Assembly: GCA_050331735.1 (NCBI GenBank)
Contig: JBHJGN010000077.1
Location: 5,062-69,061 of the forward strand
DNA: 64,000 nucleotides
Reading direction: 5' to 3'
DNA from: Cyanophyceae cyanobacterium
GTDB taxonomy: Bacteria > Cyanobacteriota > Cyanobacteriia > Cyanobacteriales > JBHJGN01
Shown: positions 11,764 through 32,306 of the stretch, one piece after another
How the letters are laid out: every line of letters begins with the position of its first letter
Numbering within the stretch: position 1 is the first letter of the stretch
Position numbers and translations under genes: made by a program
Notes under the pieces: generated by a model
Database searches by the model: none
Told to the model about the DNA's origin: nothing
Seen by the model: only the letters and a program-made list of their open reading frames with translations

Positions 11764-11921
11764 CTAGAACAAAATTTAGGGGGCAATTGTTAAGCAGGCT
11801 ACAATTATGGACAAACGTGTAGGGATTCGATTACATTCCAAAAAGAGTTCCTTGGGGCTGAAACAGCTTCAGTTTCTAAGAATTCCGATGCGAGAGAGTT
11901 TGCTCCCTCCCCTTGGCTCGC

Positions 11922-11945: not shown

Positions 11946-11990
11946 AGAAACAGCCTGTTTTCTAGTTTAAAGTGGTTTTCGGCTTGACCT

Positions 11991-12689: not shown

Positions 12690-12695
12690 CGTTCA

Positions 12696-13100
12696 ATGAC
12701 AGCAGCGATGGCGACCAAGCGAGTGTTTATCTGTGGTTCGGCGCTCAGAGGTCAGCCCGATCATCAAAATCTTCAGTCAGCAAAATTTATTAAGCCAACT
12801 AAAACGCTGCCGCAGTATCGCCTCCACGCCGCCGAAAACGGGTGGCATCCAGCCATTTATGCTGTAGCAGAGGGCGGCGTTAGTATTCCGGGCGAAATTT
12901 ATGAAATGACCGACGAGCAGTACGACTACCTGCTTGCCAACGAGCCTCCTCATATGTACCCCGACACCGTTAATCTGGAGTCAGGAGAACAGGCGATCGC
13001 CATGCTCTACCCCCAAGAACTAGTCGAAAAACATCGCTGGCCCGATATTTCCGATATTGGTGGCTGGGCAGCCTATAAACTTTCACAGCAGGAAGAGTAA
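12696..13100 (+). CDS. Gamma-glutamylcyclotransferase-fold protein resembling the allophanate hydrolase C-terminal domain
   Basis: 134 aa. RVFICGSALRGQPDHQNL...YRLHA...EGGVSIPGEIYEM follows the pattern I recall for AH C-terminal/GGCT-like proteins. Starts 6 nt after the gntR stop, so it is probably co-transcribed. Confidence 0.45.
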   Translation: MTAAMATKRVFICGSALRGQPDHQNLQSAKFIKPTKTLPQYRLHAAENGWHPAIYAVAEGGVSIPGEIYEMTDEQYDYLLANEPPHMYPDTVNLESGEQAIAMLYPQELVEKHRWPDISDIGGWAAYKLSQQEE

Positions 13101-13214
13101 AATTATGTTCCTAGTTAACTCAAAGTTCTGCCGAACTCAGGTTCCGGCGGCTGCTTTGAGCAAGCTCGATGGTTTCAGTTCGCCGTCTACTACATTTCCT
13201 ATTTACTTGAAAAA

Positions 13215-14525: not shown

Positions 14526-14565
14526 ATCCAGCGTTTCTAATGGTTTAAGCAAAATATTTTATTGT

Positions 14566-14983: not shown

Positions 14984-17014
14984 TCATCTAAAGGTTGTCG
15001 GAACAGAAACAGTAGACACCCGATTTTGAGCAAAATGTTCTAATAACATGCGGTGATAAAATACATAGCTACCACCCACTTTTTTCATCAACAGTCGTTC
15101 TGAGGCGTAGTCAAGAAAGTGAGCTAGATTCCTAGGAATTAAACCCTTAGCCCATAATATAAGTCGTAGGTTGACGTGTTGAATGCAGGCCATTCCGCCT
15201 CCAAAAAGTAGCCCTAAAATCAGTCCCCAACTGATTACAGAAGTGATTGACTTTAATCCTTTAGGAAATAAACTAATCGGAAAAGGAAACAAAATGATTG
15301 GGATCAAAATTAGCCAACTAGCTAATGCGACGATCGCGGCATTCGTGACCGATTTCCGAATACCTTGGTTAGGGATAGTTTTTGTCTCTATTTCTGAGCC
15401 TCTTAGCCCACGGATTAATCCGATAATTAGTCCTAAAATTACTCCTAAAAATAGTCCAAATACTATTATTGTTAAGCCATTGCTTGGCTCTTTCCAAGTC
15501 AGGTAACACCACACTACACTAATCGGGGACAAAATTCGACTCCAGCTTAGTCCATCCCTTAAACCATTAAGCAGATCTTTTCGCGTTTTTTTCCAAGGCC
15601 ACGTCAAAGTTTCAAAGGTTTTTATTTCTGCTTTATCGCTTCCAAACCATAACAAAACAAGTCCCCATGTTACTCCGTTGATCGCTAATACTTTAAAAAG
15701 GTTAATTTTTTCGTTATGCAAGTCTAAAACATAGCCTAGTAACAAGATTAATAGAACAACCAGCATCCCCATCAGTATACTTCCCACTCGATAAAGTCTT
15801 CTTTGGAGATTAGGCTCCAACCAATAGGGCTGCATTCTCTCAATTAAAAAGACAGATTGAGCTCCCTGAGACATCCGCTGTGCCAGCCAAGTTAGCCAGT
15901 ATATTGACCTATCTTTCTGGTATTGCTGAACTCCTTTACGCTTGAACATCCGATCAATATAAGTATCGAACAGGTGATGACGGCGTTCTTCACTTGAGCA
16001 AAACTGCTGTAATAGATCTTCTACTGACCAATCTTGATAAGCAACACTCATAATACTGAGAATTAGAGGAGTTTGGGCAAAACGTTCTAATTCTCGATCT
16101 TGCTGTAATAGCGTTCTTAAGCCAGCGAGGGAATCACCTGCTTCTGCTAAAAAACGATCTACTTGTTTTTTTGAAAGAGGTTTAATACAGATAGCACTGC
16201 TAAGTTGCAAACGCGCTGTCAGTGCCTCATAATCCTCGACTCGGCTACAAATCACCATCTCAGTAATATTATGAGTTGTGATAAATTGATTTAAAGCTCT
16301 AACGCAAGCGTTGCGCTTTCCAGCTTGTACTTCATCTAATCCATCAAGAAATAGAATTAGCTGTTCCTGTTCAATCCAAGGTTCGCTTAGCGTTTTGGGA
16401 ACTTGATATTTATCTTTTAGTTCTTCAATTAGCCATTTTTCTATGGGTTGCTGCTTGTATTCCCAAGAAGATAAGTTAAACACTACGGGGATAGGCTTCG
16501 TTAAATCTTTTTCGGTTTGAGCGATCGCTTTTTTGGCTAGCTGTAATAAAGCAATCGTTTTTCCTGAACCAGGCTCTCCTAAAATTAATAGGGTTTTACC
16601 TTGTCCGGTTTGATTCAAAATATCTGTTGATTTAAGTTGGTCAAAAGACTTATCCAAGTCTATTGCTATATCTTCAACGCCTGTAAAAGGTCTAATTACC
16701 GCACTTGAATTTTTTTCCCAGTCGAGGTTAATGACATTATTTCTATAGAGAGAAGAGTTGAGAAAACCCTCGATCCAAGACTCTTTAACTTTGCGCAATA
16801 AGGTGATTCGCTGTCTATATTCGTGTTGAGTTAATACTTGGCGCACTACTGGAGTTTGACCTAACCAGTCCAGATCATTCGTGACGCGATCGCGATATTG
16901 CTCGCGACTGAGAATGGTAATGTTGTGATTGTGAACAGTGTTATTGTCACCAACCGCAAAGCCTTTTGCTGAAGCTTCAAACCTTTGATTGTATTTAGCA
17001 CTACGTTCAACCAT
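14984..17014 (-). CDS. NACHT-family STAND NTPase (NLR-like) with N-terminal short signalling motif and about 6 transmembrane helices
   Basis: Start moved to ATG 17014 (MVERSAKYN) with GGAG 8 nt upstream. Walker A LILGEPGSGKT, Walker B LILFLDGLDE. Hydrophobic helices span ORF residues ~417-620. C-terminal YVFYHRMLLEHFAQ resembles the NACHT-associated YxFxHxxxQEYFAA helix. No TPR/WD40/LRR repeats. Confidence 0.8.
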   Translation of the reverse strand: MVERSAKYNQRFEASAKGFAVGDNNTVHNHNITILSREQYRDRVTNDLDWLGQTPVVRQVLTQHEYRQRITLLRKVKESWIEGFLNSSLYRNNVINLDWEKNSSAVIRPFTGVEDIAIDLDKSFDQLKSTDILNQTGQGKTLLILGEPGSGKTIALLQLAKKAIAQTEKDLTKPIPVVFNLSSWEYKQQPIEKWLIEELKDKYQVPKTLSEPWIEQEQLILFLDGLDEVQAGKRNACVRALNQFITTHNITEMVICSRVEDYEALTARLQLSSAICIKPLSKKQVDRFLAEAGDSLAGLRTLLQQDRELERFAQTPLILSIMSVAYQDWSVEDLLQQFCSSEERRHHLFDTYIDRMFKRKGVQQYQKDRSIYWLTWLAQRMSQGAQSVFLIERMQPYWLEPNLQRRLYRVGSILMGMLVVLLILLLGYVLDLHNEKINLFKVLAINGVTWGLVLLWFGSDKAEIKTFETLTWPWKKTRKDLLNGLRDGLSWSRILSPISVVWCYLTWKEPSNGLTIIVFGLFLGVILGLIIGLIRGLRGSEIETKTIPNQGIRKSVTNAAIVALASWLILIPIILFPFPISLFPKGLKSITSVISWGLILGLLFGGGMACIQHVNLRLILWAKGLIPRNLAHFLDYASERLLMKKVGGSYVFYHRMLLEHFAQNRVSTVSVPTTFR

Positions 17015-17030
17015 TTTAAGTCTCCAGCAG

Positions 17031-17402
17031 CTAAGAGCCAAATGTATTTGTTTGAGTGTTGCGATCGCCGAATTGACCCCCTTTAACTTCCCCTTGAAAC
17101 AGCATGTTATATTTACCTGCTGCTGTTTCTTTAGGATCTAACTGTTTTAGTATTTCCTGAGCTTTTTCAACAATTTTCTCGTCTCGATCGGCACCAACCT
17201 CAGTTAATTTCTTTTTGAGTGGAGCTTCATAGGTGTCAGGGTCTTTTTCGTATTCTTCTAAAACCATTTCTGCTTTTGGTTCGCCATCAAATTTATGCTT
17301 AATTAAAGTTTTTAAGCCTTGATAAGCATCTGGAGCAACATCTCTAGCCGCTTTTACTGCTCCAGCAACCAGTGCAGCAAGAATTAAAGAAATTGGTTCC
17401 AT
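17031..17402 (-). CDS. Small Bell-like protein with N-terminal hydrophobic helix and C-terminal amyloid-signalling-type motif
   Basis: 123 aa with a GAGGA RBS. The N-terminus MEPISLILAALVAGAVKAARDVAPDAYQGLKTL is followed by a charged helical middle. The last ~26 aa (GKYNMLFQGEVKGGQFGDRNTQTNTF) match the N-terminus of the next gene. Confidence 0.6.
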   Translation of the reverse strand: MEPISLILAALVAGAVKAARDVAPDAYQGLKTLIKHKFDGEPKAEMVLEEYEKDPDTYEAPLKKKLTEVGADRDEKIVEKAQEILKQLDPKETAAGKYNMLFQGEVKGGQFGDRNTQTNTFGS

Positions 17403-17647: not shown

Positions 17648-20600
17648 TTAAACAAAGATCGATTTATAAATGCGGTTCTGAACTTTTAAAGTTCCCTGTT
17701 GCTTAACGACTAGCCCCGATAACAGCAGTTCTCTTTCCTCGGGGCTATTATCTGAAACTATTGCACCTCGGTGTAAAATTTGTCGATAGAGTTCTAGTAG
17801 TCGGACGGACTGTTTGCTCTTGAGCAGGCGATCGCGGATCGTTCTCAAATGCTCGGGTTCATCCTGATATTCCCAATTCTCGACGATCTTGGTTCGCACC
17901 AAGTTTTCGAGCCACTCGGCTTCTTGGTTAGCAGGGATTGAAGAGGAAGCATCGCGGATAAGTTTGCAGAGCTTTTGGGTTAAAAAGGGCTGTCCGTTCG
18001 TCCAGGCAAACACTTCTTTGAGCAGCGTTTGTGGATTATTCACTTTGTCCATTAATCCTTGCAGCAACGGTTGCGCTTCATGCTGTTTAAAGCCCTCTAG
18101 TTGAATCGCCTGACCGATGTTAAAGGGGGTTCTTTGATAGTCGGTTGCTAAATCGCTCGGAGTAGCGACACCAAAAAAAGCAAAGGTTAGGCGTCGATAC
18201 TCTGGATCGATACTGCGCTGATTGTAGCAGGAGCGTATCAGCGCCAAAAAGTCATTAACGGGAAAATTCAGGCTTAAGAGGCTATCAAGTTCATCGATAA
18301 AAATAACTAGATTGGGAAGAGCATTATCTTGGCACTCGACTTCAACTAACAAAATTTCTCGAATAAACTGACTCAATTTTTGTACTGGAGAAAGATCTTC
18401 TTGCTCTCGCCACCAGGTTTTTAAATCGACTGTCCTCAGCAAACCAAAGCCATACCATAGCTCTACGGCTAATCCCTTATACCATTGTTCGGGCGTAACG
18501 CTTTCGCTGCCAATCCGAGTCAGATCGATCGCTCCGCAGCTAAACCCTTCGTGCTGGAGGTGACGCATCATGCGCACCATCAAGCTTGACTTGCCCATCT
18601 GCCGAGGATTGAGAACATGACAAAACTCTCCTCGTTTTAACGCTTTATAAAGACAGCGATCCGCCGAGCGTACCACATAAGTCGGGGCATCCATCGGCAA
18701 ACTTCCCCCCACTTGATAGTCAAACTCAGAGGATTGTTCGGCACTTCTGAGCAGTTCATTTTCAAACATGAGTTCTGCTTGAGTCGCTTGGAGAATTTCC
18801 AAGGTTTGCGATAGCTCTTGAGTGCGTTCTGAAACTCGTTGTTCGAGGGTGCGATTGTAGCCTGCTAGCTGTTTGTAGAGACGGGCATTTTCGATAGAGA
18901 TAGCGGCTTGAGCGGAAAGAATCTTTAAAACTTCTACGCGATCGCTAGTAAAGGCACCGCTGGTTAAATTATTTTCTAAATAGAGAATCCCGATCAGTTG
19001 ATCTTGATGAAGCAAAGGAGTACAAAGAATCGATTTGGGGTGAGTCGCCACTATGTAAGGATCGCCGCTAAACTGTTTTGCCTCAGTCGCGTTGTTTAGC
19101 ACAACGTTTTTGTGGGTGCGGGCAACATAGTGAACGATGGCAACGGATAGAATTGGTGCTTGGCAATCGTCTACAGAGTCAATGGCAATTGATTGCAGAA
19201 CAGCCACCTCATCAGCCTCTACTGCTCCTCCCGCTTCAATTGTTAAGTGATCCTCGTTTGCTAGAATCAGAAAGCTTTTTTGAGCGCCAGCATTCTCAAT
19301 GACAGTTTTCATCAAATTTTTGAGCAATTGGCTCAGCGCGATCTCCCGCGAAATTGTCTGCGAAGCTTTGATAACGCTGGCTACATCTAATCCTGCCTGG
19401 GTCAAGGTTGAAGATAAGCGGTTGGTCGATTCTGAGGCTAAATGTGGGTATCGTTGCTCTAGGTGCTTCACCTTGGCGTGTGCGCCCCATCTTTGGTAGG
19501 CATAATGAGCATCCTGTATGTAGTGGCGAGCAACATGATTCTCCTGAGCTAGGTAAAATTGACCAGCCAGTTCGCAGGCAAGAGCTTCTTCATTAAGATA
19601 GTTGTTTTCCTGAGCCAGCATAATAGCCTGGTCATACTGCTCTCGGGCTTCTTGAACTTGCCCCAACACTCGGCAACGTTCTGCCTCGACTAAATGAAGC
19701 TTGTGTAAAAAATTCATGGGAGCACTTCGCGCCCACGTTCGTATCTGCTTTTGATTACTGGCTACTTTTGCTAAAATTTGTTTCTGTTCAACGGCTAAAG
19801 ACTGAGGGTAGACCGCCAGTCGTGCTAAAGAGTCATAAAAGTAGAAGAGGGGACAAAGCAGCGTTCCTGTAGAGGTGTCTACATAGGGTTCAGCACAAAC
19901 AGCATTTTCAAACGCTTCCTGATACTGATTAAACAGGTAGCAGAGAATTAGTTTGTTGAGATACAGATAGTAAATAGTTGAGCGTTGATTTCTTTGCACA
20001 TAGAGAGGAAGTTCCTGTTCTTCGTTATAAACCTCCCCGACTAGACGGTAGGGTTCGTCTTCTCCAATCAGGTTCAGAACAATTTGATGGATCAGAGTGT
20101 CGTTTCTGAGCTGATTAATGGTACTGCTATAGGTAGTGATTTCCTGCTCTAATTCAGGTAGGGGACGAGCAGCGCTGAAATAGGAAAGATAACAATAGAT
20201 TTGGATAGATAGAGCGGCATGTTCAAGATCTCCCGTGGCTAAACCACTGTGATAGGCAGCTAATAAGGCGCTAAACGTCTGGCTAATGTGGAATTTCCCA
20301 GGAATTGTAAAATAGGTGGTCACAAAGAGGGTCATCGCTTTGAGTTCTTTCGCGTTTAACCGCTCTAACAGACGCAAAGCAAGCTGACCGAATTGGTAGC
20401 CAAGCTCAAAGTTTGCGGCTCTACAGAGAATCAATCCGTAATTCGCATAGGCATGGGTATGAGCAACAGCGTTGCCATAGTGAAGAGCCAAATTAATTTG
20501 GGCAAAGATAATGAGCGGCAACAGGTGAGGACGGGCTATATAGGCGGCAGGGCAGAGAGTGAGTAGGATACGGGTAGCGGCAATTTTGGTCGGATCGCTC

Positions 20601-23269
20601 ATCAAAGGCGCATCCAGTAAGTCTTGAGGCTGTTTTTGTGCCAAGGATTGTTGCAGCGTCTCGAACCCCAAGCTCACGTCAGATTCAGAAGGCTGCGTCG
20701 GTAAATTCACGCCGAGGATTTTCAGCACCGAGATGCCAAGCTGGAGGGCTTCGGTAAATTTTTTCTGGGCTTTGAGCGCTTGGATTTCGATTTCGTGAAC
20801 TTTCACCTGCTCTAAGTCAGATTGAGCCTGTTGCCGTACCGCCTGAACTAACTGCTCCATCCGCCTAAAATCGTGGTTGAGATAGGCTGCCTCTGCGGCG
20901 GCGGTGTGTAGAGCTAGCGATAGGTCGTATTGCTGCCAGTTTGCTTCAAGTAGTTCTAAGCCGACGGTAAAGTAGGTGAAGGCAGATTGATGGGCGGCTG
21001 ATGCTTTCGCGATCGCTCCTGCCTGGAGATTTAAGCGGGCGAGTTGCTCTCGCTCTGGACGGTGGGAGAGCAGTGACCGTCCCTGGTTGAGCTGATTAAC
21101 AATCGTAAAGGGGTCCGATTCTAGGGGGGTGTGTTTGAGCAACCGTTGACCAATCTGCCAATGCACAGCCTGGGTTTCTGCCTGGGGAATGAGGCCATAG
21201 ACCACCTGCTGGATGCGATCGTGGGCAAACTTGTATCCGGCTGATTTTGATAAACCGTTTACCTCCAGCGACCTTAGCGTGTAGCTGTCGTTCAGGGGTA
21301 GAATATATCCCTCGGCGATCGCTGCCTCTAAATCTACTGCTACTTCCCGAGCCGTTTTTTCAGAGATAATCGCTAATCGGTCTAAAGTAAATCGGTTCCC
21401 CAGGCAGGCGGCTAATTTCAACGCGGCCTGAGTTGGTGGCGTTAGCTGTTTGACCTTCTCCGCCATCAATTGGGCGACATTATCCGCAATCGGCTGGGTT
21501 TGAATCTGCTTCAAATCCCACCGCCATTGCCCTCGTTCGTCATCAAATTCGATCAGCGATCGCTCGTGTAGAGATTTCAAAAACTCGCTGACAAAAAAAG
21601 GATTGCCCCCCGTTTTTGCCTGTAACATCGTTGCCAGCGGACTGGCGGTGGTGGAGTCAACCCGAAAAGTATCGCTGAGCAGTTGGCGAGTATGGGTTTG
21701 GGTTAGGGGCAACAGCGAAATTTGATTAACGGTGATAGAAGACTCGATTTCCCTTAAAGTGAGCAGGAGCGAACTCTCGCTTACTTCGTTGTCTCGATAG
21801 GCTCCAATCAGCAGCAAGTATTGGCTATTTCCAGCCGTGAATAACCGTTGAATAATTTCAAGCGTGGCTCGATCTGCCCACTGCAAATCGTCTAAGAAGA
21901 TGACGAGGGGATGTTCCGGTTGAGTAAAAACTTTAACAAAATCTTGCCATACCCGATGAAAACGATTTTGCGCCTCTGTCGGCGCAAGGTTTGGGAGGGC
22001 TGCTTGGGAACCGATAATCAATTCTAAGTCGGGCAGAACATCGAGCATCACCTGTCCATTTGCCCCCAAAGCCACCAACAGTTTTTCCCGCCATTCTGCA
22101 ATCTTGGGTTTACTTTCAGTCAGTAGCTGTTGGATTAATGACTGAAACGCTTGAATTAGGGGAGCATAGGGAATGTTGCGCTGTAGCCGCTCAGATTTCC
22201 CAGAGATAAAGTAGCCTCGCTGACGGGTCAGGGGCTGATACACCTCCTGCACCAGAGCGGATTTACCCACCCCTGAATGTCCGCAAATCACCATCATTTC
22301 GCTAGCGCCTTGGCTCACGCGATCGCAGGCAGCTAATAAGCGAGCCAACTCTGCTTCTCTTCCGTAGAGCTTTGGGGAAATTTGAAACCGATCGGAAATA
22401 TCCACTTGACCTAATGGAAAGGAAGCAATTTGCCCTTGGGTTTGCCACTGATGCCAACAGTGTTCCAAATCTGCCTTGAGTCCAAAAGCCGATTGATAGC
22501 GATCTTCGGCGTTTTTGGCCATCAGCTTGAGCACAATGTCTGAAATTGCCGGGGGAAGGTTGGCATTATGTTGATGGGGAGGAAGCGGAGATTTGGCAAT
22601 ATGGCCGTGAATTAATTCCAGAACATCCTCTGTAGGAAAGGGCAACCGACCAGTGAGCAGTTCATAAAAGGTTACCCCGAGAGAGTAAAAATCCGTTCGC
22701 TCATCGATTGCCCGATTCATCCGCCCCGTCTGCTCTGGGGAAATATACGTTAATGTTCCCCTTAATACCTTTGGATGACGAGTTGAGTTTTTCGGGGTCA
22801 GTAGGAGCGAGCTACCGAAGTCGATCAGTTTGACCTGCTCAGTCGCGGGACTCCAAACAATATTGGACGGGTTGATATCGTTGTGGACAACGTGCTGTTG
22901 ATGCACTTGGGCAAGAATACGAGCAAGTTGAATGGCAAGCGGGAGAAACTCCGTGACAGAGAGAGGGCGCTCTTCAATCACCCGATCGAGAGCTTGCCCC
23001 CCAAAATCCTCTAAAACCAAGAGCCAGCGGTCCTGCTCATTCTCTAAACCATAGACTTGTACTACCCCTGGCAAGTTAAGTTGATTGAGTTTTTTGGTGG
23101 TTTCATACTCCTGTCTAAACCAAGCAATTTCCTCGGGTGTCGGGTAAGGCTGTTTGAGAAATTTGAGAATGACGGGTTGACAATCTGCTAATCGTCGTCC
23201 GCGATAGACTTGCGAGCTAGCGCTTTCGTGAAGCTGTTCGATAATTTGGTAGTCTAAAACACAAATCAC
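17648..23269 (-). CDS. Multidomain signalling NTPase: Ser/Thr protein kinase + AAA_16-type STAND ATPase + TPR-like helical array + GAF + coiled coil + C-terminal AAA-like (AAA_35-type) NTPase
   Basis: GTG start with GGAG 6 nt upstream. Kinase motifs [18 protein letters not shown] (aa ~6-270). P-loop GHSGVGKS with [12 protein letters not shown]. Long helical repeat region. GAF ([19 protein letters not shown]...ILYLENN...ISIENARLY). Coiled coil. Last 359 aa: [34 protein letters not shown]. Confidence 0.8.
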
Positions 23270-23287
23270 GACGCTCTCCGTTTGCTT

Positions 23288-24817
23288 CTAGAACCAGGTC
23301 AGATGTCTAGGCTGCCGTTGTTGCCGTTCAGCAGATCGCTTTTGCAGTGCTTCTACCAAGGCTTTCTCACTTGTGTCTTCTGGGGAGGGACCGTACAAAA
23401 TCCCGACAACCTTTTTCATCTTCTCCACGTCGTAGTGATGTTCGCCATGTTCGTGTTCGTGACTAGGACCAGCCCAAGGGGAATCGGTGTGAACCCACTG
23501 CCCTTTCTCGAACCAATCTACGCCTTGAATAACCGTCTTCACCACCTCACCGGGATGAGCCGCTTCATGGGCGCTGAACCAGTCATTGATGCGGTCATCC
23601 ACCCAGCCGTGCAGCCGCCAGAACACCGGGTTGACGTGAGAGGAATAGAACTCGCCCAAAAAATCGTATTCGGGGCGATCCCAAAAGTCACGGATGTCGT
23701 TGTCTTCCCGTCCAGATGGCAGTACGCCGAGCGCGGGATGATAGGGGGCTGATGTCCAACGCATGTGCATATCGTTATGAACCGAGTACTCAAGCAGTGC
23801 ACCAAGTTCTCCGAGCGAGAGGGTACTGAGGTACTGTTTGTTCTTAAACTCCCGGTCCCACCACGCCATCCGCGACCAGTAGTGTCCGTCTGTCTTTAAT
23901 AGAGCAATGCGGCGGTTGGTGATTTCGTCGGTCGGATCGATCCAGGCTGGAGGAATAGCAAATCCGTCTGGGTTGCCGGGGGTGGGGAGAACTGGCGGGT
24001 CTTCCTCGTAGTCTGGTTCGGCTCCCACAGAACCGGGACGGGGAATCGTCGGCCATCCGGCGATCGGCTCCTGTCCAGCTTCCTTGATCTTGCGATTCAC
24101 TTCTTGAATCATCTGTCGGTGCATGAAGAGAAAGTCCTCACCGGAGCCATTGCGAATTAGGGGAGCACCTGTCGCATCGACTGACGGACGTTCTTCTTCG
24201 CCGCCTGGTTGCCATCCAAGTTCTCGAATTGCCTGTTTTTTCTCTTCGTTGATCATCGGATTAAGCCACAATCCGCGCACACTGTGCCAAACGGTATGGT
24301 GGAGCCGATGGTGTTTCGATGCCAGCATCTTGAGAACTTCCTGTGGAAGCGGAATGACCGTTCTTGGCTCAGGGAAATCCCGTTGAACAGCAACGAAAGA
24401 GGCTACTACGCCAGCCGGACTATCCTCGCCATGCTCCACAGTTCGGATTACCGTTCCTACCAACGCAGGTCGCTGATTCTTTCCGTTCGGCCACTCAGGG
24501 ACAAAATAGGCGACGTAATCGTACACCCACCCCTGGGCAAATGTTCCCAACACGCCAGTCCCTTGAAATCTTAGGGAAAATGGGTTGCCTGTCTGGAGCG
24601 AGCCTTGGAGTGAGAGTCGGGCGTCATTCATCTTCGGCGGGTCACTCCTAAAGGCAAGCTGTCCGCGAATCGTCCCAGGCTCGGCAGCCGCCTCAAATAC
24701 CATCTCACCTTCCCCAAAGATGAGGTTTTTGAGCTTGTCACAATCATCGCTGACTGGCTCAGTAATGTTGTTATAGCTGCGGTAGGTCCAAGCCCCGCTC
24801 AGAAATTCGTTGGTCAT
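23288..24817 (-). CDS. Divergent tyrosinase-like (type-3 copper-like) protein with N-terminal beta-rich domain
   Basis: FLFMHRQMIQEV resembles FLPWHRxxLxxFE. HNDMHMRW resembles HNxVHxWxGG. NPVFWRLHGWVDDRI resembles DPxFWLHHAxVDRLW. There is also a His cluster, HHRLHHTVWH. The canonical CuA His at -9 is missing and the CuB spacing is longer than usual. No signal peptide. Confidence 0.4.
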   Translation of the reverse strand: MTNEFLSGAWTYRSYNNITEPVSDDCDKLKNLIFGEGEMVFEAAAEPGTIRGQLAFRSDPPKMNDARLSLQGSLQTGNPFSLRFQGTGVLGTFAQGWVYDYVAYFVPEWPNGKNQRPALVGTVIRTVEHGEDSPAGVVASFVAVQRDFPEPRTVIPLPQEVLKMLASKHHRLHHTVWHSVRGLWLNPMINEEKKQAIRELGWQPGGEEERPSVDATGAPLIRNGSGEDFLFMHRQMIQEVNRKIKEAGQEPIAGWPTIPRPGSVGAEPDYEEDPPVLPTPGNPDGFAIPPAWIDPTDEITNRRIALLKTDGHYWSRMAWWDREFKNKQYLSTLSLGELGALLEYSVHNDMHMRWTSAPYHPALGVLPSGREDNDIRDFWDRPEYDFLGEFYSSHVNPVFWRLHGWVDDRINDWFSAHEAAHPGEVVKTVIQGVDWFEKGQWVHTDSPWAGPSHEHEHGEHHYDVEKMKKVVGILYGPSPEDTSEKALVEALQKRSAERQQRQPRHLTWF

Positions 24818-24930
24818 GATGTTCTCCTTGGTTCGCGGTCGGTTATCAGCTTGCGGCTATATACTCTACAGGCATGAGCATGGCGGCTTTAAGCTGTGCT
24901 TCATAGTATTCTTGCTCTGAGCCTTTTAAT

Positions 24931-24956
24931 CTCATAAAACTCATAGAAAAGCTCAT
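24931..24956 (-). promoter_or_regulatory. CTCAT array, copy 2, upstream of the tyrosinase-like/kinase genes
   Basis: CTCAT at 24931, 24940 and 24952 (spacings 9, 12). AATCTCATAAAACTCATAGAAAAG matches copy 1. Lies 115-140 nt upstream of the ATG at 24817. Confidence 0.4.
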
Positions 24957-24978
24957 AAAAAACTTAGGCGATCGCCCT

Positions 24979-26358
24979 CTAGCTCTCAAAAACCGATGTG
25001 ATGGACAGATGTTGTCCCTTGGTAAAATACTGCCGATACAGTTCGCACCCGGCGATCGCGCGATTGCCGCAAAGTTTAATTAACCCCATACTGCATAGCT
25101 TGTGGGTTTGAATCGGATCTAAGGAAACAGGTTCAGCGGCATTTAGAACCTGATGAAGAGCCTGCATCAACTCAGGCTGTTGTTCTAGGGTGGCCCAATG
25201 ACGCTGCAGGTGATGAGCATATATTCCTGTCGCCGTGAACGCCGTTTTTAGCAGTTGCGATAGCGTTATTTCTCCCCGATTCAGATGATAGAGTGCCAGA
25301 TTCACCAGTGCAGGATGACCCCCGACTAGAGACATCAGTTGCTGGGCTTCTTTGTCATCCGTCCAGTCCAGTCCGTAACGTTGGGCTAGGAGCTGTACTT
25401 CCTCTGGAGTAAAATCCTCTAACTGAATGGGTAGCCCGACATTGAATGGGGATTGGTTACAGTCGAGAGGAACGTAAATTTCTGTTGAGTGAACCACAAT
25501 CAGACGCAGCTTTCGCCAAATCGGTAATCTTTTTGTTTCTTCGTACCACGACCGCAACAGCGGTAAAAAATCCTGCGCCACCTGCGGATGCTCGAAAATC
25601 TGGTTCACTTCATCTAGCGCCAAGACGAGGGGAGCGTCGATTGACTCTAATAAATAGTCTCGAAAGTAAAGGGTGCAGCTCAGATTACTGCCCAAATCTT
25701 TGTCCCAATACTCGTCTAGCATCGGTTTAAGCTCAAGCTGGCGAGAGATACTCGTACACAGCCAGCGCAAAAATTGATTCAAATTACCCAAAATTGATTG
25801 CTCGACTTGCTCTAGGTTCAGGCTGACGGTATGGTATCCCAGGTGAGAGGCGTAGTTAAGGCTCCTCAGCAGCAGTGAGGTTTTCCCCATTTCTCTCGGA
25901 GCCTTAATCCGAATTAACGCTCCTGATTTTCTCACTTCTCGCTCGACTTGTTCCTTAACAGAAGAGCGTTCGAGGTAAAAGGGAGAGTCAAGCGGAACTG
26001 AGCCGCTGGGGTAGCAAGGTGACGGATCCTGGTTGACATGGGGGAACGCTTCCGCCAGAGGTGACCTTAAAGGTCTTGTTTGAGGGTCGGGTCTGGTGGT
26101 GACGTAAGACTCCAGTAATCCCCGACAGTTCTTTTTGGTCACGCGCTGACCGACGACCTTAGAAAGTCGCTGATACAGCTCTGGGGCAGCAACGTTGGTA
26201 AAGTAGCCAGGACTATAGCCTGCCTCGATTGCAATCTGGTTGTAGGTTTTATACTGCCAAATACCCTGTAGGATCAGCATTTCTGCGGGATTGAGGGGTC
26301 GATTTTGGCTCTCAATGAGCTGGCGGTCAACAATTTTACAGAGATTATCTAAATTCAT
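24979..26358 (-). CDS. AAA-like (AAA_35-type) NTPase with N-terminal HTH-like module of the type labelled vWA-MoxR-associated N-terminal domain
   Basis: The N-terminus LNPAEMLILQGIWQYKTYNQIAIEAGYSPGYFTNVAAPELYQRLSKVVGQRVTKKNCRGLLE fits a cyanobacterial N-terminal module I recall. Then YPSGSVPLDSPFYLER, Walker A REMGKTSLL and Walker B LVLALDEVN. This part is paralogous to the C-terminal 359 aa of the 1873-aa protein. Confidence 0.7.
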   Translation of the reverse strand: MNLDNLCKIVDRQLIESQNRPLNPAEMLILQGIWQYKTYNQIAIEAGYSPGYFTNVAAPELYQRLSKVVGQRVTKKNCRGLLESYVTTRPDPQTRPLRSPLAEAFPHVNQDPSPCYPSGSVPLDSPFYLERSSVKEQVEREVRKSGALIRIKAPREMGKTSLLLRSLNYASHLGYHTVSLNLEQVEQSILGNLNQFLRWLCTSISRQLELKPMLDEYWDKDLGSNLSCTLYFRDYLLESIDAPLVLALDEVNQIFEHPQVAQDFLPLLRSWYEETKRLPIWRKLRLIVVHSTEIYVPLDCNQSPFNVGLPIQLEDFTPEEVQLLAQRYGLDWTDDKEAQQLMSLVGGHPALVNLALYHLNRGEITLSQLLKTAFTATGIYAHHLQRHWATLEQQPELMQALHQVLNAAEPVSLDPIQTHKLCSMGLIKLCGNRAIAGCELYRQYFTKGQHLSITSVFES

Positions 26359-27004: not shown

Positions 27005-27162
27005 GGGATGGGGAAATGTCCGGTGCGGAACGGGGAAAGGGAAAAATATTGCTGTGCGACGGCAAAGAAATACAGGGTCAAGGAGCAAACTGATTGATGT
27101 CTCCCTTTCCCCCTTACCCTTACCCTTTTCCCTTTTCCCGCAGCTTCGCTGCTTCCCGGTCC
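27005..27162 (-). repeat. Mosaic GGGGAAA/mini-hairpin repeat R2
   Basis: Contains GTCCGGTGCGGAAC, the exact reverse complement of the R3 hairpin at 31775. Also has C-rich tracts and GCAGCTTCGCTGC (27140-27152). Overlaps the 3' end of the AllC-like ORF. Confidence 0.85.
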
Positions 27163-28391
27163 AACTTCAATAAAGTCAGCAGTAGAACGTTAGCCCCCTG
27201 GGTACACTGTTCGGGGGAGGTATATTCGCTTTTGTCGTGGGAAACTCCTTGCTCGCTGGGAACAAAGATCATGCCCATGTCGGTAATCAGAGCCATTTCT
27301 TGAGCATCGTGACTGGCGCGACTGGGTAGATGGGTATAGCTCAAATTTAGCTCTTGGCAGCTCTGGGCGATCGCCTCTTGCAAGCTGGGTTCGGCTAGGG
27401 CGGGTTCGTTGTGCAGACAGGGATGGAGGCGAATTTGGGTATGGGTGGCGACGGCAATTTCTTCGAGGTGAACGCGCAACTGATCCAGCAGGCGATCGAT
27501 ATGCAGACTAGATAGGTCGCGGATGTCTAAGCTCATTTCTACCCAACCGGGAACGACATTTGCCGCATTAGGCCGAACATTCATTTGACCGACTGTGGCG
27601 ACCTGCTGCCCCGGAGTATGGGCAATTTGGTTGACGGCTAAAACAACCTGCGCCGCAGCCACTAAAGCATCGCAGCGCATCTGCATTGGGGTTGTCCCAG
27701 CGTGGTTTGCCCGACCTCGAACGGTAATCGTAAAGCGTCGTTGTCCGACAATCCCTTCCACAACGCCAATTTGTTTGCCCATCGTTTCCAGGACTGGTCC
27801 CTGCTCAACATGCAGTTCGACGAAAGCGGCGATCTCTTGAGCACTCCGGCGAGCGTGAGGAATCTGGTTCCAGCGACCGCCAACTCTTTCTAAACAGGTA
27901 TAAATATCAGTGCCGTCGGGACGGCGGTAGTAGCCCGGATCGTTAACCACTCTGCCAGAAATGGCTTTAGAACCAATCATGCTGCCTTCTTCGTCGGTAA
28001 AGACGATCACTTCTACAGACCGATTGAGCACAATTTGCTGTTCTTGAAGTACGCGCACCACTTCTAGTCCGGCCAAGACTCCGTAGGCTCCATCGTAGTG
28101 ACCGCCGCAGGGAACGGTGTCGATGTGAGACCCGGTTGCCCAAGCGGGGGCATCGGGAGATTTTCCAGGATATCTACCAATAATATTGCCTGCTGCATCA
28201 ATGCGGACCTGCATGTGGGCTTCGTGCATCCAGTGCTGAATCAAACGGCGGGCTTCAACATCTTCGCTGCTGTAGGCAATCCGCTTCACGCCGCCATCGG
28301 GCAGTTGACCAATTTGAGCCAGACGAGCAATGCTGTGATTGAGGCGATCGCCATTCACTAATACCTGTTCTTTGTTTGGGCTAATAGTCAT
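27120..28391 (-). CDS. allC: Allantoate amidohydrolase / M20-family carbamoyl-amidohydrolase
   Basis: GSHIDTVPCGGHYDG, FVELHVEQGPVLE, GIVGQRRFTITVRGRANHAGTTPM and SRASHDAQ are collinear with AllC as I recall it. The last 11 codons (EAAKLREKGKG) are encoded by repeat R2. Confidence 0.75.
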   Translation of the reverse strand: MTISPNKEQVLVNGDRLNHSIARLAQIGQLPDGGVKRIAYSSEDVEARRLIQHWMHEAHMQVRIDAAGNIIGRYPGKSPDAPAWATGSHIDTVPCGGHYDGAYGVLAGLEVVRVLQEQQIVLNRSVEVIVFTDEEGSMIGSKAISGRVVNDPGYYRRPDGTDIYTCLERVGGRWNQIPHARRSAQEIAAFVELHVEQGPVLETMGKQIGVVEGIVGQRRFTITVRGRANHAGTTPMQMRCDALVAAAQVVLAVNQIAHTPGQQVATVGQMNVRPNAANVVPGWVEMSLDIRDLSSLHIDRLLDQLRVHLEEIAVATHTQIRLHPCLHNEPALAEPSLQEAIAQSCQELNLSYTHLPSRASHDAQEMALITDMGMIFVPSEQGVSHDKSEYTSPEQCTQGANVLLLTLLKLDREAAKLREKGKG

Positions 28392-28487
28392 CGTTCCCTG
28401 CCAATGCGACTAAAGAATGCTTTCTGCTGCATTGAAGCTCTCATTTAGAAAAATAAATATTATATGGACTAACAAGCAAGCAGAATC

Positions 28488-28505
28488 CTGTATACAGTGT
28501 ACAAG
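28488..28505. promoter_or_regulatory. Candidate GntR-type operator S3 (palindrome CTGTATACAG; TGTATACAGTGTACAAG)
   Basis: Lies about 100 nt upstream of the allC start in the allC/permease divergent region. Shares 11 invariant positions with S1 and S2 (TG.AT.C.G..T.CAAG). Confidence 0.35.
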
Positions 28506-28649
28506 CAAATTAAGTTCCTGTCCGCCAACTGAGATACCAAATGCTCTGTCGTACAGCGACGAAGCCCGGGAGCATCGCTCGTCGATTTGCTGTTTTTTCG
28601 ATAAACTGTGCGATTTGATACACTGAGTGATTTAAAAATCTGTAATTCT

Positions 28650-28667
28650 CTGTATACAGAATGCAGT
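28650..28667. promoter_or_regulatory. Candidate GntR-type operator S4 (second CTGTATACAG palindrome; TGTATACAGAATGCAGT)
   Basis: The same perfect 10-bp palindrome as S3, located 150-200 nt upstream of the permease start. Confidence 0.3.
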
Positions 28668-28817
28668 AGCAGGCAAGTGATGGTAGGTTGGTCAGTCTTA
28701 CATGAACTGAGTATTCGGACATACCGCGATGGCATGAGTAAATAGCCCTGAAGGGTTCCAGTCCCGTTAGCCGTAAGCTGTTTCAGTGTTACCCACACCC
28801 TCCTCGTCTCTTTCCTA

Positions 28818-30245
28818 TTGGCTCCATCAATTACAACACCGCTCAAAATTATGGTACAGCCCAATCGAGAATTAGCCTTAGAAGAAGTTCAGTCTGAAGC
28901 CTCCTCTACCATCGAATCGGATCTAATTTACGGGTTAGAATCCCGCCCGCCATTTGTCGAATCGGTGTTCGTTGCCCTACAGCACGTTTTTGCCTGTTTT
29001 GTCGGCATTATTACACCGGGTTTAATTATTTGCTCGGCGCTACAGGTACCGCCAGCCGATACAACCTTTATTCTCAGTATGTCCTTGGTTGTTTCCGGAA
29101 TTGCGACCTTTATCCAGGCCAAAAGAATTGGACCAGTTGGTTCGGGACTGTTAAGTGTGCAAGGAACGAGCTTTGCTTTCCTCGGACCGATTATTGCCAC
29201 CGGATCAGCCGTGACGGGGGCGGGGGGAACTCCTCAAGAAGCACTGGGGCTAATTTTTGGCCTCTGCTTTTTTGGGGCTTTTGTTGAAATTTTTATCAGT
29301 CGCTTTCTGCATCTGGCTAACAAAGTCATTACCCCATTAGTAACGGGAGTCGTTGTCACCCTGATTGGCTTGACCTTAATTCGGGTCGGAATTACCAGCA
29401 TTGGCGGTGGCGTACCGGCCCAAAATAACGAAACTTTTGGTAGCCCAACCTATTTAGGGGTAGCGTTTTTAGTGTTAGCGGTCATTGTTGTGCTCAATAG
29501 CCTCAACAACAGCTTTTTGCGGATGTCGTCGATTGTGATTGGTTTAGCAGTAGGCTATTTGGTTTCTATTCCCCTGGGACTGGTAGACTTTAGCAACCTG
29601 GCAAATTTACCAATAGTGGCCTTTCCGATTCCCTTCCGCTATGGCTTTGGATTTGACTGGGGAGCGTTTATTCCCTTTGCTTTTCTGTATTTGATTACGG
29701 CCATTGAATCTATCGGCGACCTAACGGCAACGTCGGCCATTTCTGGCGAACCGATTGAAGGGGGCACCTATTTCCGCAGACTCAAAGGAGGGGTATTGGG
29801 CGATGGCGTGAACTCAATGATTGCGGCTTGTTTGAATACGTTTCCTAACACAACCTTTAGCCAAAATAACGGCGTGATTCAGCTAACTGGAGTAGGCAGT
29901 CGCTACGTCGGCTACTTTATTTCTGCGATTTTTATCATTCTCGGTTTGTTTCCGCTGGTGGCAGGAGTTTTTCAGGCATTACCTCAGCCGGTGTTAGGCG
30001 GTGCTACTATCGTTATGTTTGGAACAGTCGCCGTGGCGGGAATTAAGATTCTCTCCTGCGTTAATCTAACCAAGCGTAATTCCATCATTCTCGCCCTGGC
30101 GTTGGGCTTGGGCTTAGGCGTAACCTTCGTGCCGGAAATTCTTGATACTTCGCCCCCGCTGGTGAAGAATATTTTTTCTTCTGGGATTTCCACAGGAGGA
30201 ATTACTGCTTTGTTGCTGAACCTGGTTTTACCCGGTCGAGAGTAA
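28818..30245 (+). CDS. Nucleobase:cation symporter-2 (NCS2) family permease, xanthine/uric acid type
   Basis: About 13-14 TM helices with the NCS2 pattern (QHVFACFVGIITPGLI, SVQGTSFAF, TAIESIGD, FSQNNGVIQLTGV). The track start is TTG 28818; ATG 28851 (MVQPN) is an equally plausible start. Confidence 0.85.
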   Translation: MAPSITTPLKIMVQPNRELALEEVQSEASSTIESDLIYGLESRPPFVESVFVALQHVFACFVGIITPGLIICSALQVPPADTTFILSMSLVVSGIATFIQAKRIGPVGSGLLSVQGTSFAFLGPIIATGSAVTGAGGTPQEALGLIFGLCFFGAFVEIFISRFLHLANKVITPLVTGVVVTLIGLTLIRVGITSIGGGVPAQNNETFGSPTYLGVAFLVLAVIVVLNSLNNSFLRMSSIVIGLAVGYLVSIPLGLVDFSNLANLPIVAFPIPFRYGFGFDWGAFIPFAFLYLITAIESIGDLTATSAISGEPIEGGTYFRRLKGGVLGDGVNSMIAACLNTFPNTTFSQNNGVIQLTGVGSRYVGYFISAIFIILGLFPLVAGVFQALPQPVLGGATIVMFGTVAVAGIKILSCVNLTKRNSIILALALGLGLGVTFVPEILDTSPPLVKNIFSSGISTGGITALLLNLVLPGRE

Positions 30246-30465
30246 TGGGGAGTAGTTGATGGTTGATTGTTCCTCAATCATCACGCTTGTATTCCTGACT
30301 TTACTGGTTTGAAGAGCGTGTCTGGTGGAAAAATTGCTTGGACGCAAATTAGATTACAGACACAGAAGATTTAACAGTAGATGATTAAAGCAATCAGTCA
30401 CCTGATGAAGCAAAGAATATGTACTATCCACCTACTGCTGTTACTTATACCTAATTTATAAAGCA

Positions 30466-31629
30466 ATGTACGAACTTAAAGCAGTAATCATCGGCGCGGG
30501 CATGGCAGGATTAGCCGCAGGAATTGCGCTGCGTCAATCGGGCTACAGCGTCGAAGTTTACGAAAAAACCAGGAAGCTGCGCCCTGCGGGGGCGGGGATT
30601 TCTTTGTGGTCGAACGGCATCAAAGTACTCAACAAACTCGGACTGGGCAAGGAAGTTGCGGCCATCGGCGGACAGATGAACCGCATGGCCTACCGCACCC
30701 ATACCGGTGAATTGCTCAACGATGTCAACCTTCTTCCTCTCGTTGAACAAGTGGGTCAAAGACCCTATCCCGTCTCGCGAACTGACTTACAGCACATCAT
30801 GCTCTCGGCCTTTGGCGAAGGAGACGTGCGCTTAGGAATGCGCTGCGTTGAGGTCAAGCAGGACCAAGACAGCGCCACAGCAATTTTTGAAGACGGCAGT
30901 ACAGCAACCGGAGATGTTATCATCGGCGCAGACGGCATTCACTCGGTTGTCCGAACCTATCTGGCGGGTCAGAAAATTGAGCCGCGCTACGCGGATTACG
31001 TCAACTGGAACGGCTTGGTAGAAGCCAGTCCCGATTTAGTCGATAAAGACGCTTGGATAATCTACGTTGGCGAGGGCAAACGCGCTTCGATGATGCCAGT
31101 GGGGAATAACCGCTTTTATTTCTTCTTTGGCTGTCCTAAACCCAAGGGAACAGAAATTCCCCCCGGTGGCATTCGTGCGGAGTTGGAAGCCACCTTTAAA
31201 GGCTGGGCGCAACCCGTCCAAAACCTGATTCAGCAACTCGACCCCGAAGACACGAATCGCTTAGAAATTAGCGACCTCGATCCGCTTCCTCATATCGTCA
31301 AAGGCAGAATTGCCCTCGTCGGAGACTCCGCCCATGCTACGACCCCGACCCTGGGACAGGGAGGCTGTCAGGCGATGGAAGATGCCGAAGTCCTCTGTCG
31401 CTACTTAGTAACAACCAACATCAGCGTTGAAGATGCCCTAAAGCGCTATGAAGCCGAACGCAAGGAACGAGTCTACAACCTGACTCTAAAAGCTCGCAAG
31501 CGCACCGATACGATTTACAACAAAGACCCAGAAGCCACTCAGCAGTGGTACGAGCAACTCAAGCACGAACAGGCTCAAGATGTCACTGATGCGCTTGCTA
31601 AAGTGATTTTAGCAGGGCCGTTTCATTGA
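30466..31629 (+). CDS. hpxO: FAD-dependent urate hydroxylase
   Basis: Near full-length collinearity with Klebsiella HpxO as I recall it: IIGAGMAGLAAG, YVNWNGLVE, VGEGKRASMMPV..RFYFFF, GDSAHATTPTLGQGGCQAMEDA. Confidence 0.85.
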   Translation: MYELKAVIIGAGMAGLAAGIALRQSGYSVEVYEKTRKLRPAGAGISLWSNGIKVLNKLGLGKEVAAIGGQMNRMAYRTHTGELLNDVNLLPLVEQVGQRPYPVSRTDLQHIMLSAFGEGDVRLGMRCVEVKQDQDSATAIFEDGSTATGDVIIGADGIHSVVRTYLAGQKIEPRYADYVNWNGLVEASPDLVDKDAWIIYVGEGKRASMMPVGNNRFYFFFGCPKPKGTEIPPGGIRAELEATFKGWAQPVQNLIQQLDPEDTNRLEISDLDPLPHIVKGRIALVGDSAHATTPTLGQGGCQAMEDAEVLCRYLVTTNISVEDALKRYEAERKERVYNLTLKARKRTDTIYNKDPEATQQWYEQLKHEQAQDVTDALAKVILAGPFH

Positions 31630-31630
31630 A

Positions 31631-31788
31631 GTCGCTCCGCGACGGGGAAAGGGAAAAGCAGCGAAGCTGCTGGGGAAAAGGGCAAAGGGGAAGGGGAAAA
31701 GGGGAGATGAATTAGCTGGTTCCTAAACCCGATGTTCTTTCCCCGTCGCGAACGCGACAGTTTTCCCTTTCCCCGTTCCGCACCGGAC
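31631..31788 (+). repeat. Mosaic GGGGAAA/mini-hairpin repeat R3
   Basis: GTCGCTCCGCGAC, GCAGCGAAGCTGC (31658-31670), a G4-type tract at 31672-31704, GTCGCGAACGCGAC (31745-31758) and GTTCCGCACCGGAC (31775-31788). Closely matches R1. Confidence 0.85.
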
Positions 31789-31796
31789 ATTAATTG

Positions 31797-32306
31797 ATGC
31801 AGCACTATACCCTCTCACAGTTAAACAGCATGACCCAAGAAGCGTTTACGGCTGCTTTAGGGGAAATTTGGGAAGAGACTCCAGAAATCGCTTGTAGAGC
31901 CTGGAATGAAATACCGTTTTCGGATGTAGATGCTTTACATCAAAGTATGGTGCGAATAGTCGAGGAAATGAGCGACTCTGAACAGCTAGCCCTGATTAAA
32001 GCCCATCCAGATTTAGGCAGTAAAGCCAAGATGGCAGATGCTTCAGTTCGAGAACAAGCAGGAGCCGGTTTAGACCGCTTAGATGCTCAAGAGTATGAAC
32101 GGTTTCAAGAACTGAATCAGGCTTATAAAAATAAGTTTGGGATGCCCTTTATTATTGCCGTGAAGGAGCATACCAAGGCAAGTATTTTGGCCGCTTTTGA
32201 AGCTCGATTACGAAATGCGATCGCCCCAGAAAAACAGCAAGCTTTACAAGAAATTAGTAAGATCGCCCGCTTCCGTTTAGAAGCAGCCATTCACTCACCC
32301 CGCTGA
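31797..32306 (+). CDS. uraD: 2-oxo-4-hydroxy-4-carboxy-5-ureidoimidazoline (OHCU) decarboxylase
   Basis: LNSMTQEAFTAALGEIWEETPEIA, LIKAHPDLGSK, SVREQAGAGLD and YKNKFGMPFIIAVK are the family's hallmark motifs. Confidence 0.85.
   Translation: MQHYTLSQLNSMTQEAFTAALGEIWEETPEIACRAWNEIPFSDVDALHQSMVRIVEEMSDSEQLALIKAHPDLGSKAKMADASVREQAGAGLDRLDAQEYERFQELNQAYKNKFGMPFIIAVKEHTKASILAAFEARLRNAIAPEKQQALQEISKIARFRLEAAIHSPR

Follow-up and report, generated by a model that had tools for sequence, protein, structure and literature searches.

Why would a cyanobacterium carry a tyrosinase-like gene between two genes for signaling proteins, and what does its product do there? The question is raised by a 64,000-nucleotide (nt) stretch of contig JBHJGN010000077.1 from a Cyanophyceae cyanobacterium (assembly GCA_050331735.1, positions 5,062 to 69,061), called the window here; positions are counted from its first letter. 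On the minus strand, the gene in question (23288..24817, stop codon included) encodes a protein of 509 amino acids (aa) and is flanked upstream by the gene of an NTPase with a helix-turn-helix (HTH) domain and downstream by that of a protein kinase fused to STAND-like NTPase domains. An earlier note on this DNA had read the product as a tyrosinase-like protein of the type-3 copper class that carries an additional beta domain, and had proposed it as an unusual effector under the control of STAND or kinase switches. Sequence comparison and structure modeling identify it as a PvdP-type tyrosinase of two domains, a streptavidin-like barrel followed by a helical type-3 copper domain whose metal is predicted from homology. 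It is thus a genuine oxidase, though an uncharacterised one, and no proven immune effector.

Judged by comparison with databases, the gene is genuine, since the protein has 750 homologs with E≤1e-5, one of them an identical NCBI entry that comes from a Cyanophyceae metagenome-assembled genome (MAG). The open reading frame (ORF) begins at the first possible start codon past an in-frame stop, with AAGGAG 7 nt 5' of the start, and ends with TAG at 23290-23288. Its length, the histidine motifs and the 18-nt spacer with GGAG before the GTG of the 1873-aa kinase gene were all found as the earlier note had described them. An antisense ORF of 156 aa with a TTG start lies inside the 3' end of the gene (23282-23752, plus strand); it is without support and presumably spurious.

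In a sequence search of the PDB, residues 67-453 matched Pseudomonas aeruginosa PvdP (E=2.5e-72), and a profile of 55 family members matched the same protein at E=4.9e-119, with weak matches to Manduca phenoloxidase (3hhs, E=0.0036) and scorpion hemocyanin (3ixv, E=0.43). The NCBIfam model tyrosinase_PvdP (NF051454) scored 306.6 bits (E=2.8e-91). The AlphaFold2 (AF2) model, built on the family alignment, has a mean predicted local distance difference test score (pLDDT) of 93.5 and a predicted template modeling score of 0.90; it contains eight beta strands in aa 8-145 and then a helical domain of the dicopper type. When this model was compared to the PDB with Foldseek, the only full-length matches were PvdP chains (E~1e-32, template modeling score [TM] of 0.67 to 0.79, about 490 aligned columns), with an identity to PvdP of 32-33%. 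The N-terminal part alone retrieved streptavidins and avidins with a target TM of about 0.7, and the strands assigned to the model by DSSP delimit a predicted eight-stranded barrel of this kind at 24383..24796. The beta-rich N terminus that had been read from the letters alone is therefore borne out by the model, and the tyrosinase-like assignment is refined to the PvdP subclass by the PDB, NCBIfam and Foldseek results together.

Seven histidines are invariant in the alignment of the 55 members (H129, H174, H178, H233, H347, H351 and H403), and three others (H170, H173 and H394) are conserved at ≥90%. Six of the seven face histidines of PvdP, H174/H178/H233 corresponding to His 216/220/271 and H347/H351/H403 to His 375/379/432 (6rrp numbering), so that six ligand-type histidines are conserved both within the family and across to PvdP. 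Assignment and numbering of the ligands rest on homology, alignment and conservation and not on measured geometry. At the first copper site (CuA), the putative ligands H174 and H178 belong to the cluster HHRLHHTVWH (aa 169-178; 24284..24313, minus strand like all motifs below), which aligns with PvdP His216 and His220, while the third, H233, lies in FLFMHRQM (aa 229-236; 24110..24133) and aligns with the histidine of the PvdP motif FFFMHR. At the second site (CuB), H347 and H351 would be provided by HNDMHMRW (aa 347-354; 23756..23779), which also holds the invariant N348 and aligns with MHDWLHMRW of PvdP. The third CuB ligand would be H403 in NPVFWRLHGWVDDRI (aa 396-410; 23588..23632), where P397, F399 and W400 are invariant as well; the PvdP counterpart, VNPVFWSFHGWIDDRI, is nearly identical. 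It had been pointed out that the second CuA histidine is not at the canonical -9 position, and indeed the segment from aa 179 to 232 has no histidine at all, hence none at -9 from H233. We infer that the upstream cluster is the H-x3-H pair that gives two CuA ligands in the PvdP subclass. The spacing from H178 to H233 is 55 aa and that from H351 to H403 is 52 aa, compared with about 22 aa for the CuB spacing in Streptomyces tyrosinase.

Canonical tyrosinases (PF00264; Streptomyces MelC2 and Bacillus megaterium TyrBm) share with this protein the logic of the dicopper four-helix core, with H-x3-H...H at CuB and an FxxxH-type helix for the third ligand. However, their CuA motif is H...H-x8-H instead of H-x3-H plus a histidine 55 residues on, and the window protein has the added barrel and no caddie gene. 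With arthropod prophenoloxidase and hemocyanin, the parallel lies in the idea of an oxidase that is kept latent by an aromatic residue in its site; there is a weak profile match but no significant overall similarity, and an immune parallel would be one of analogy. The closest known system is PvdP (PDB 6eys, 6eyv, 6rrp-6rrr; NF051454), with the same architecture of barrel and type-3 copper domain, the six histidines aligned and the CuB helix NPVFWxxHGW(I/V)DDRI nearly identical. The differences are that the window protein lacks an export signal, has its own C-terminal region ending in TWF, possesses an additional invariant histidine (H129, located in the barrel and peculiar to its clade) and carries, after the first CuB histidine, an asparagine that is invariant in the clade where PvdP has an aspartate. 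In addition, its gene is cyanobacterial and lies in a regulator cassette, with no pvd genes in the annotated 8.3-37.6 kb.

The absence of a signal peptide, already stated in the earlier note, extends to the relatives of the protein. In the window protein no export signal is possible, the conserved WxYRSF beginning at residue 10 with no upstream start available. Of the 120 homologs closest to it, 98 have the corresponding motif (M..G.WTYRSF) at an offset of 7-11, and where the N terminus is longer it never resembles an export signal. Because there is no signal peptide, the enzyme probably acts in the cytoplasm. Two other features are common in this signal-less clade. One is a histidine-rich loop, SHEHEHGEHH (aa 452-461; 23435..23464), modeled with low confidence (pLDDT <50 at aa 454-457); at least four histidines within the 30 aa past the PWxGP motif occur in 50 of 98 homologs, e.g., EHDHEHSGHSEHDGGH and YEHGHDHGHDHGHED, and the loop may serve for copper capture by a cytoplasmic cuproenzyme. 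The other is the C-terminal tail LTWF-COOH (aa 506-509; 23291..23302), a candidate plug of the active site that is kept in the closest relative of the locus (see below). A phenylalanine falls within the last three residues of 68 of the 120 homologs, TWF being the commonest ending, and across phyla the variants TWF, SWF, SHF, SRF and VGF are found. In PvdP, which is periplasmic, a tyrosine in the active site is displaced by the substrate (PMC9305348). Because that tyrosine fills the site until the substrate displaces it, we propose by analogy that the TWF tail may be an equivalent plug, and the peptidases that are frequent neighbors of the homologs (see below) would fit proteolytic activation of such a plugged enzyme.

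The three genes of interest lie on the same strand, in the order 26358 to 24979, 24817 to 23288 and 23269 to 17648. The upstream one (24979..26358) encodes a 459-aa protein with an HTH_VMAP-M9 domain (precomputed PF26355) and an AAA_35 NTPase domain (504 bits), and the downstream one (17648..23269) the 1873-aa protein, in which Pfam recognizes Pkinase, AAA_16, GAF and AAA_35 domains. The GTG start of the latter is supported by alignment with the ATG start of its orthologue in a Leptolyngbyaceae MAG (locus L010). In its catalytic loop, HNDINPSN (22800-22830, minus strand; aa ~125-135), asparagine replaces the usual lysine, and the VILK lysine, DFG and SPE are kept; the protein may be specialised or weakened as a kinase. 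A spacer of 18 nt, AAGCAAACGGAGAGCGTC, with a GGAG (23270..23287) separates the stop codon of the tyrosinase gene from the kinase GTG (23269). A scan for promoters and terminators gave counts not above those of shuffled sequences and no terminator between these two genes; with 18 nt and no terminator separating them, the two are almost certainly co-transcribed, judging from the DNA. The near-coupling of tyrosinase and kinase genes that had been claimed is real in the window, but the spacer is 180 nt in L010, and a conserved translational coupling had to be dropped. Upstream of the tyrosinase there is an intergenic region of 161 nt (24818..24978) that contains the AAGGAG ribosome-binding site and a TAGAGT -10-like element common to L010. 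A 36-codon, tyrosine-rich small ORF in this region was considered as a precursor peptide and discarded, as it is not conserved in L010.

To see what accompanies these tyrosinases elsewhere, 88 loci encoding homologs were fetched and then searched with the neighbor proteins of the window. An AAA_35 gene upstream and a kinase-STAND gene downstream were found in just one of the 88, L010, whose tyrosinase is 73% identical to that of the window and where the order AAA_35, tyrosinase, kinase is the same despite a protein divergence of 27-48%. The co-occurrence with AAA_35 or kinase-STAND genes for which the earlier note had proposed to look is thus not a property of the family, and the idea of a conserved linkage was abandoned. 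The L010 AAA_35 gene (2582-3786) is split into two ORFs of 160 and 205 aa, probably by an assembly frameshift rather than as a pseudogene; the contig has a coverage of 2.3x. No kinase or AAA_35 neighbors were seen on short metagenome contigs with close homologs (P0003, P0004 and P0007). Among 56 non-pseudomonad loci, kinase, AAA_35 and STAND families are not recurrent neighbors; the commonest immediate neighbors are peptidases (M10 at six loci, plus S8, M14, M36, M1 and C1), and Dioxygenase_C (about six distinct loci), multicopper oxidases (four), RHS toxins (four) and nonribosomal peptide synthetase (NRPS) modules (two) are recurrent as well. Pseudomonas loci have a constant neighbor of about 460 aa (PvdM type) plus others.

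The flanking genes gave a different picture. Homologs of the 459-aa AAA_35 protein number >6000 in cyanobacteria at about 70-77% identity, and the mean column identity is 77% among 25 members from different orders. We defined a cassette as an HTH_VMAP-M9/AAA_35 gene, a cargo and a Pkinase-AAA_16-GAF-AAA_35 gene in this order on the same strand, an arrangement that the window displays on its minus strand, and searched 80 metagenome loci, picked by similarity of the AAA_35 gene, with the 1873-aa protein. Among the 34 loci with ≥9 kb of downstream flank, 21 have a same-strand kinase gene of this architecture (~1900-2090 aa) downstream of the AAA_35 gene; of the 25 with an equivalent upstream flank, only 2 have such a same-strand gene on the upstream side. 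The gap between the AAA_35 and kinase genes varies from 100 nt to 7.9 kb. Five loci have no gene in between, and in the remaining ones the gap genes are on the same strand and form recurrent sets: an RPE65 or carotenoid-cleavage-type dioxygenase (11 loci), a YcaO-ThiF-winged HTH protein with an Amidohydro_2 protein (8 loci), a TP_methylase with two TPR proteins (5-6 loci), a radical-SAM/SPASM enzyme with an unknown protein (4 loci), a flavin amine oxidase (1 locus) and a sigma-70 factor with unknown proteins (1 locus). The PvdP-type tyrosinase is a rare occupant of the slot, present in the window and L010 only. The window kinase protein is 54-57% identical to the kinases of cassettes with other cargos or none, compared with 52% to that of L010, and its AAA_35 protein shares 76-77% identity with many others, compared with 68% for that of L010. 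Since the flanks of the window are closer to other cassettes than to L010, the cargo would not simply track its flanks, a pattern such as cargo exchange would give; this is a soft indication, given that L010 is a 2.3x assembly with frameshifts. No description of the cassette was found in full-text searches of open-access papers, and searches on PF14516, "PvdP-like," tyrosinase with STAND NTPase and AAA-like domain with YcaO returned nothing relevant.

The explanation that we favor, and consider reasonably probable, is that a PvdP-type dicopper oxidase serves as the cargo of this cassette under signal-dependent control by the HTH-NTPase and the kinase. By homology to PvdP, O2 would be bound between two coppers, a phenol ortho-hydroxylated and the resulting catechol oxidised to an o-quinone. 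The likeliest phenol would be the tyrosine side chain of a peptide or protein, or else another phenol, inside the cell. PvdP itself acts on the D-Tyr of a peptide, ferribactin, by hydroxylation and oxidation (PMC6206403). For a peptide or protein substrate speak the peptidases as commonest neighbors of the homologs, and NRPS modules beside a Scytonema homolog and one other. The TWF tail would close the site until the substrate or some processing opens it. The tyrosinase would be expressed as cassette cargo, in one transcript with the kinase gene. The HTH domain of the AAA_35 protein together with the GAF and kinase domains suggest that accessory enzymes in the slot would be under ligand- and phosphorylation-dependent transcriptional control, and the status of the tyrosinase as a regulated cargo is plausible. 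Of all this, the fold, the conservation of the ligand positions, the order of the genes and the recurrence of the cassette are observed, and copper binding, the substrate, control by the flanking genes and the part played by the tail are predictions.

Several observations weigh against this explanation. At the level of the protein, the NF051454 score is about half of the 625-bit equivalog cutoff, and the Pfam scan of the window protein gave no PF00264 match at E≤1. Its only Pfam match, to WDR35, was rejected as spurious, with no tyrosinase or hemocyanin family found. The PF00264 search that had been put forward to check the tyrosinase idea would by itself have wrongly refuted it, and we set this null aside as an argument against a type-3 copper site given the PDB, NCBIfam and fold matches. 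Activity in the signal-less clade is extrapolated from PvdP, and the convergence of the histidines on a dimetal site and the docking of the tail are predictions. Lack of a signal peptide is no proof of a cytoplasmic location, as the tyrosinase of Streptomyces leaves the cell as a hitch-hiker on its caddie protein. At the level of the locus, the tyrosinase occurs in the cassette in two genomes only, with the longer spacer in L010, and close homologs have other company: the Scytonema homolog (75% identical) comes after an NRPS condensation-adenylation-thiolation module, one of 74% identity lies 5' of S8 peptidases, among them a fusion with an intradiol-dioxygenase domain, and one of 71% comes after a ThiF gene. 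Finally, the cassette census is a selection made by AAA_35 similarity and not a complete survey.

Some of these points would suit a fortuitous neighbor better, i.e., an independent accessory enzyme for the detoxification or catabolism of phenolics or for a pigment, inserted by chance between the regulators and served by its own promoter. We regard this as possible but rather unlikely. It would account for the highly heterogeneous neighborhoods of the family, for a spacer that is not kept and for the 161-nt upstream region with its -10-like element shared with L010, and the segment of 14.9-26.4 kb that contains the genes interrupts a purine-catabolism gene set in an insertion-like manner. There is also a precedent in MelD, an intracellular Streptomyces tyrosinase reported to detoxify phenolics and one of those canonical tyrosinases that are found inside cells (PMC9454253). 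Chance insertion, however, does not sit well with a gene order retained in a second genome at such divergence, nor with same-strand cargo in the slot at >20 other loci, and co-transcription with the kinase gene is nearly unavoidable across 18 nt without a terminator. That the protein is a true PvdP orthologue maturing the chromophore of a pyoverdine-like siderophore is very improbable: PvdP is the only characterised homologue and the Scytonema relative stands beside an NRPS module, but the score is far under the equivalog cutoff, identity is just 32-33%, the signal peptide is missing from the relative of a periplasmic protein (as given in the PDB structure titles), and PvdM, PvdO, PvdN and NRPS genes were not found in the annotated ~29 kb (8.3-37.6 kb), whereas PvdM-type neighbors are constant in Pseudomonas. 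Just as remote is a catalytically silent type-3 copper fold, a protein that binds O2, copper or a ligand; hemocyanins are not oxidases although they have the same site, the matches of the family profile to hemocyanin and phenoloxidase are weak ones in its favor, and a histidine-rich loop and a possible plug are present, but the six ligand histidines are invariant, as is the asparagine after the first CuB histidine, and the family neighbors are mostly enzymes acting on peptides or aromatics.

The immune role deserves a closer look, since the earlier note had drawn an analogy with the phenoloxidase cascades of animals. STAND-like NTPases and the kinase would sense an invader and switch on the tyrosinase, whose reactive quinones would flood the cell in an abortive infection. 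Conserved NTPase and switch genes with a swappable payload slot are a hallmark of conflict systems, and the HTH domain PF26355 was first defined in proteins of vWA-MoxR conflict systems (PMC7159879), a publication whose text makes no mention of tyrosinase, RPE65 or YcaO. The remaining cargos (RPE65, YcaO, methylase and radical-SAM enzymes) resemble tailoring or metabolic enzymes and not toxins. A NACHT gene adjoins the segment in a low-GC (guanine-plus-cytosine) stretch, some homologs lie beside RHS toxins or a Bil-like ThiF/JAB system, and C-terminal phenylalanine tails with adjacent peptidases recall zymogen activation. Nevertheless, neither the tyrosinase nor the AAA_35 protein matches any family of PADLOC-DB v2, and the kinase matches generic kinase models only; the AAA_35 partner, at 77% mean column identity, is extremely conserved, unlike sensors in an arms race; and the linkage of tyrosinase and STAND genes is confined to two genomes. 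We therefore consider an immune effector improbable. The effector idea of the earlier note gains indirect support at most, from the recurrent cassette with its variable enzyme slot; the lack of PADLOC matches and an AAA_35 protein that carries an HTH domain and is so conserved speak against the cassette as an immune system.

If the favored explanation, a regulated oxidase cargo, is considered in the light of known regulators, two comparisons are useful. AfsK/AfsR, a Ser/Thr kinase with an HTH-STAND regulator that governs specialised metabolism in Streptomyces, is the closest functional analogy: in the cassette, too, the genes of a Hanks-type kinase and of an HTH plus P-loop NTPase protein form a pair, with accessory enzyme genes between them, and the kinase protein of the window weakly matches the NCBIfam AfsK model (E=1.4e-8). 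The domain families of the cassette (HTH_VMAP-M9, AAA_35, AAA_16 and GAF) differ, nevertheless, and phosphorylation and DNA binding are predictions for it. The nucleoside triphosphate (NTP)-dependent conflict systems of multicellular bacteria described by Kaur, Burroughs, Iyer and Aravind in 2020 (PMC7159879) have in common the HTH_VMAP-M9 name, STAND-like NTPases and variable payloads, and both they and the cassette are enriched in filamentous or multicellular cyanobacteria; in contrast, the genes that we examined yielded no vWA-MoxR, VMAP-C or effector-associated domain. A bolder version of our proposal, which we offer as tentative, is that the cassette is an undescribed, widespread cyanobacterial sensor or regulator with an exchangeable slot, and the tyrosinase a payload whose product, a reactive quinone or a modified peptide, is made in response to a signal. 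Bacteria would then have an intracellular equivalent of a regulated phenoloxidase. If the cassette is a functional unit, one regulator pair would serve many payloads, providing a handle on the sensed signal and on oxidative enzymes as regulated effectors. The recurrent two-gene cassette with exchangeable enzyme cargo, a by-product of the analysis, is in our opinion more interesting than the tyrosinase itself, although the case for its novelty is weak because the literature searches covered open-access papers only.

The enzyme is nonetheless of interest in its own right. PvdP, known solely for its part in pyoverdine formation in the periplasm, is the one member of this tyrosinase subclass that has been studied, and the signal-less clade is uncharacterised. 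Copper enzymes are rare inside cells, and the peptidase and oxidase neighbors of the clade point to an unexplored tyrosine-directed chemistry of peptides or proteins there. The wider PvdP-related family, including PvdP and domain-only proteins, is small: in a set of 1.84 billion representative proteins, 1135 clusters match at E≤1e-3, and 280 do so at the stricter E≤1e-30. Its distribution is patchy, with members in cyanobacteria, Bacillus, Paenibacillus, Rhodopirellula, Stieleria, Streptomyces, Nonomuraea, acidobacteria, rhizobia, myxobacteria and Nitrososphaerales archaea; the signal-less clade is likewise patchy, in cyanobacteria, Firmicutes, planctomycetes, actinomycetes, acidobacteria and Nitrososphaerales archaea. 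The barrel also exists as a stand-alone gene of about 135 aa on rhizobial plasmids, 38-44% identical to the window barrel, in a Rhizobium plasmid (NZ_CP071682.1; L174, 5001-5417) and a Mesorhizobium plasmid (NZ_CP080523.1; L175, 4001-4402). The operon order there is multicopper oxidase, tyrosinase, LodA/GoxA oxidase (a cysteine tryptophylquinone oxidase), barrel and flavin adenine dinucleotide (FAD) oxidoreductase, and these operons also hold DJ-1/PfpI, cytochrome P460 and a YCF48-like protein. Because the stand-alone barrel sits in oxidase operons, the domain appears to be linked to oxidases in general. In three Pyrinomonadaceae MAGs (L020, L021 and L024), barrel-less members of about 355 aa adjoin multicopper oxidases of about 780-810 aa, and in a Vicinamibacterales MAG (L022) a full-length member of 495 aa lies beside a similar multicopper oxidase.

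Within the window, the kinase-STAND gene is directly followed, in a low-GC stretch, by the gene of a 685-aa NACHT NTPase with a 123-aa ORF at its 5' side that overlaps the NACHT start by 11 nt (14984-17402, minus strand); the small ORF has a faint HetE-N-like signal (E=0.18). This pair and the kinase-STAND, tyrosinase and AAA_35 genes make up a segment of about 14.9-26.4 kb that is bracketed by genes of purine or urate catabolism type (8285-14552 and 27120-32306). One flank has an M20 peptidase, a xanthine/uracil permease, an FAD monooxygenase and an OHCU decarboxylase, and the other a paralogous FAD monooxygenase, a GntR/FCD regulator and an amidohydrolase. The GC content decreases to 0.39 at 14-18 kb, and in its gene content and composition the segment resembles an island that has entered a cluster of catabolic genes.

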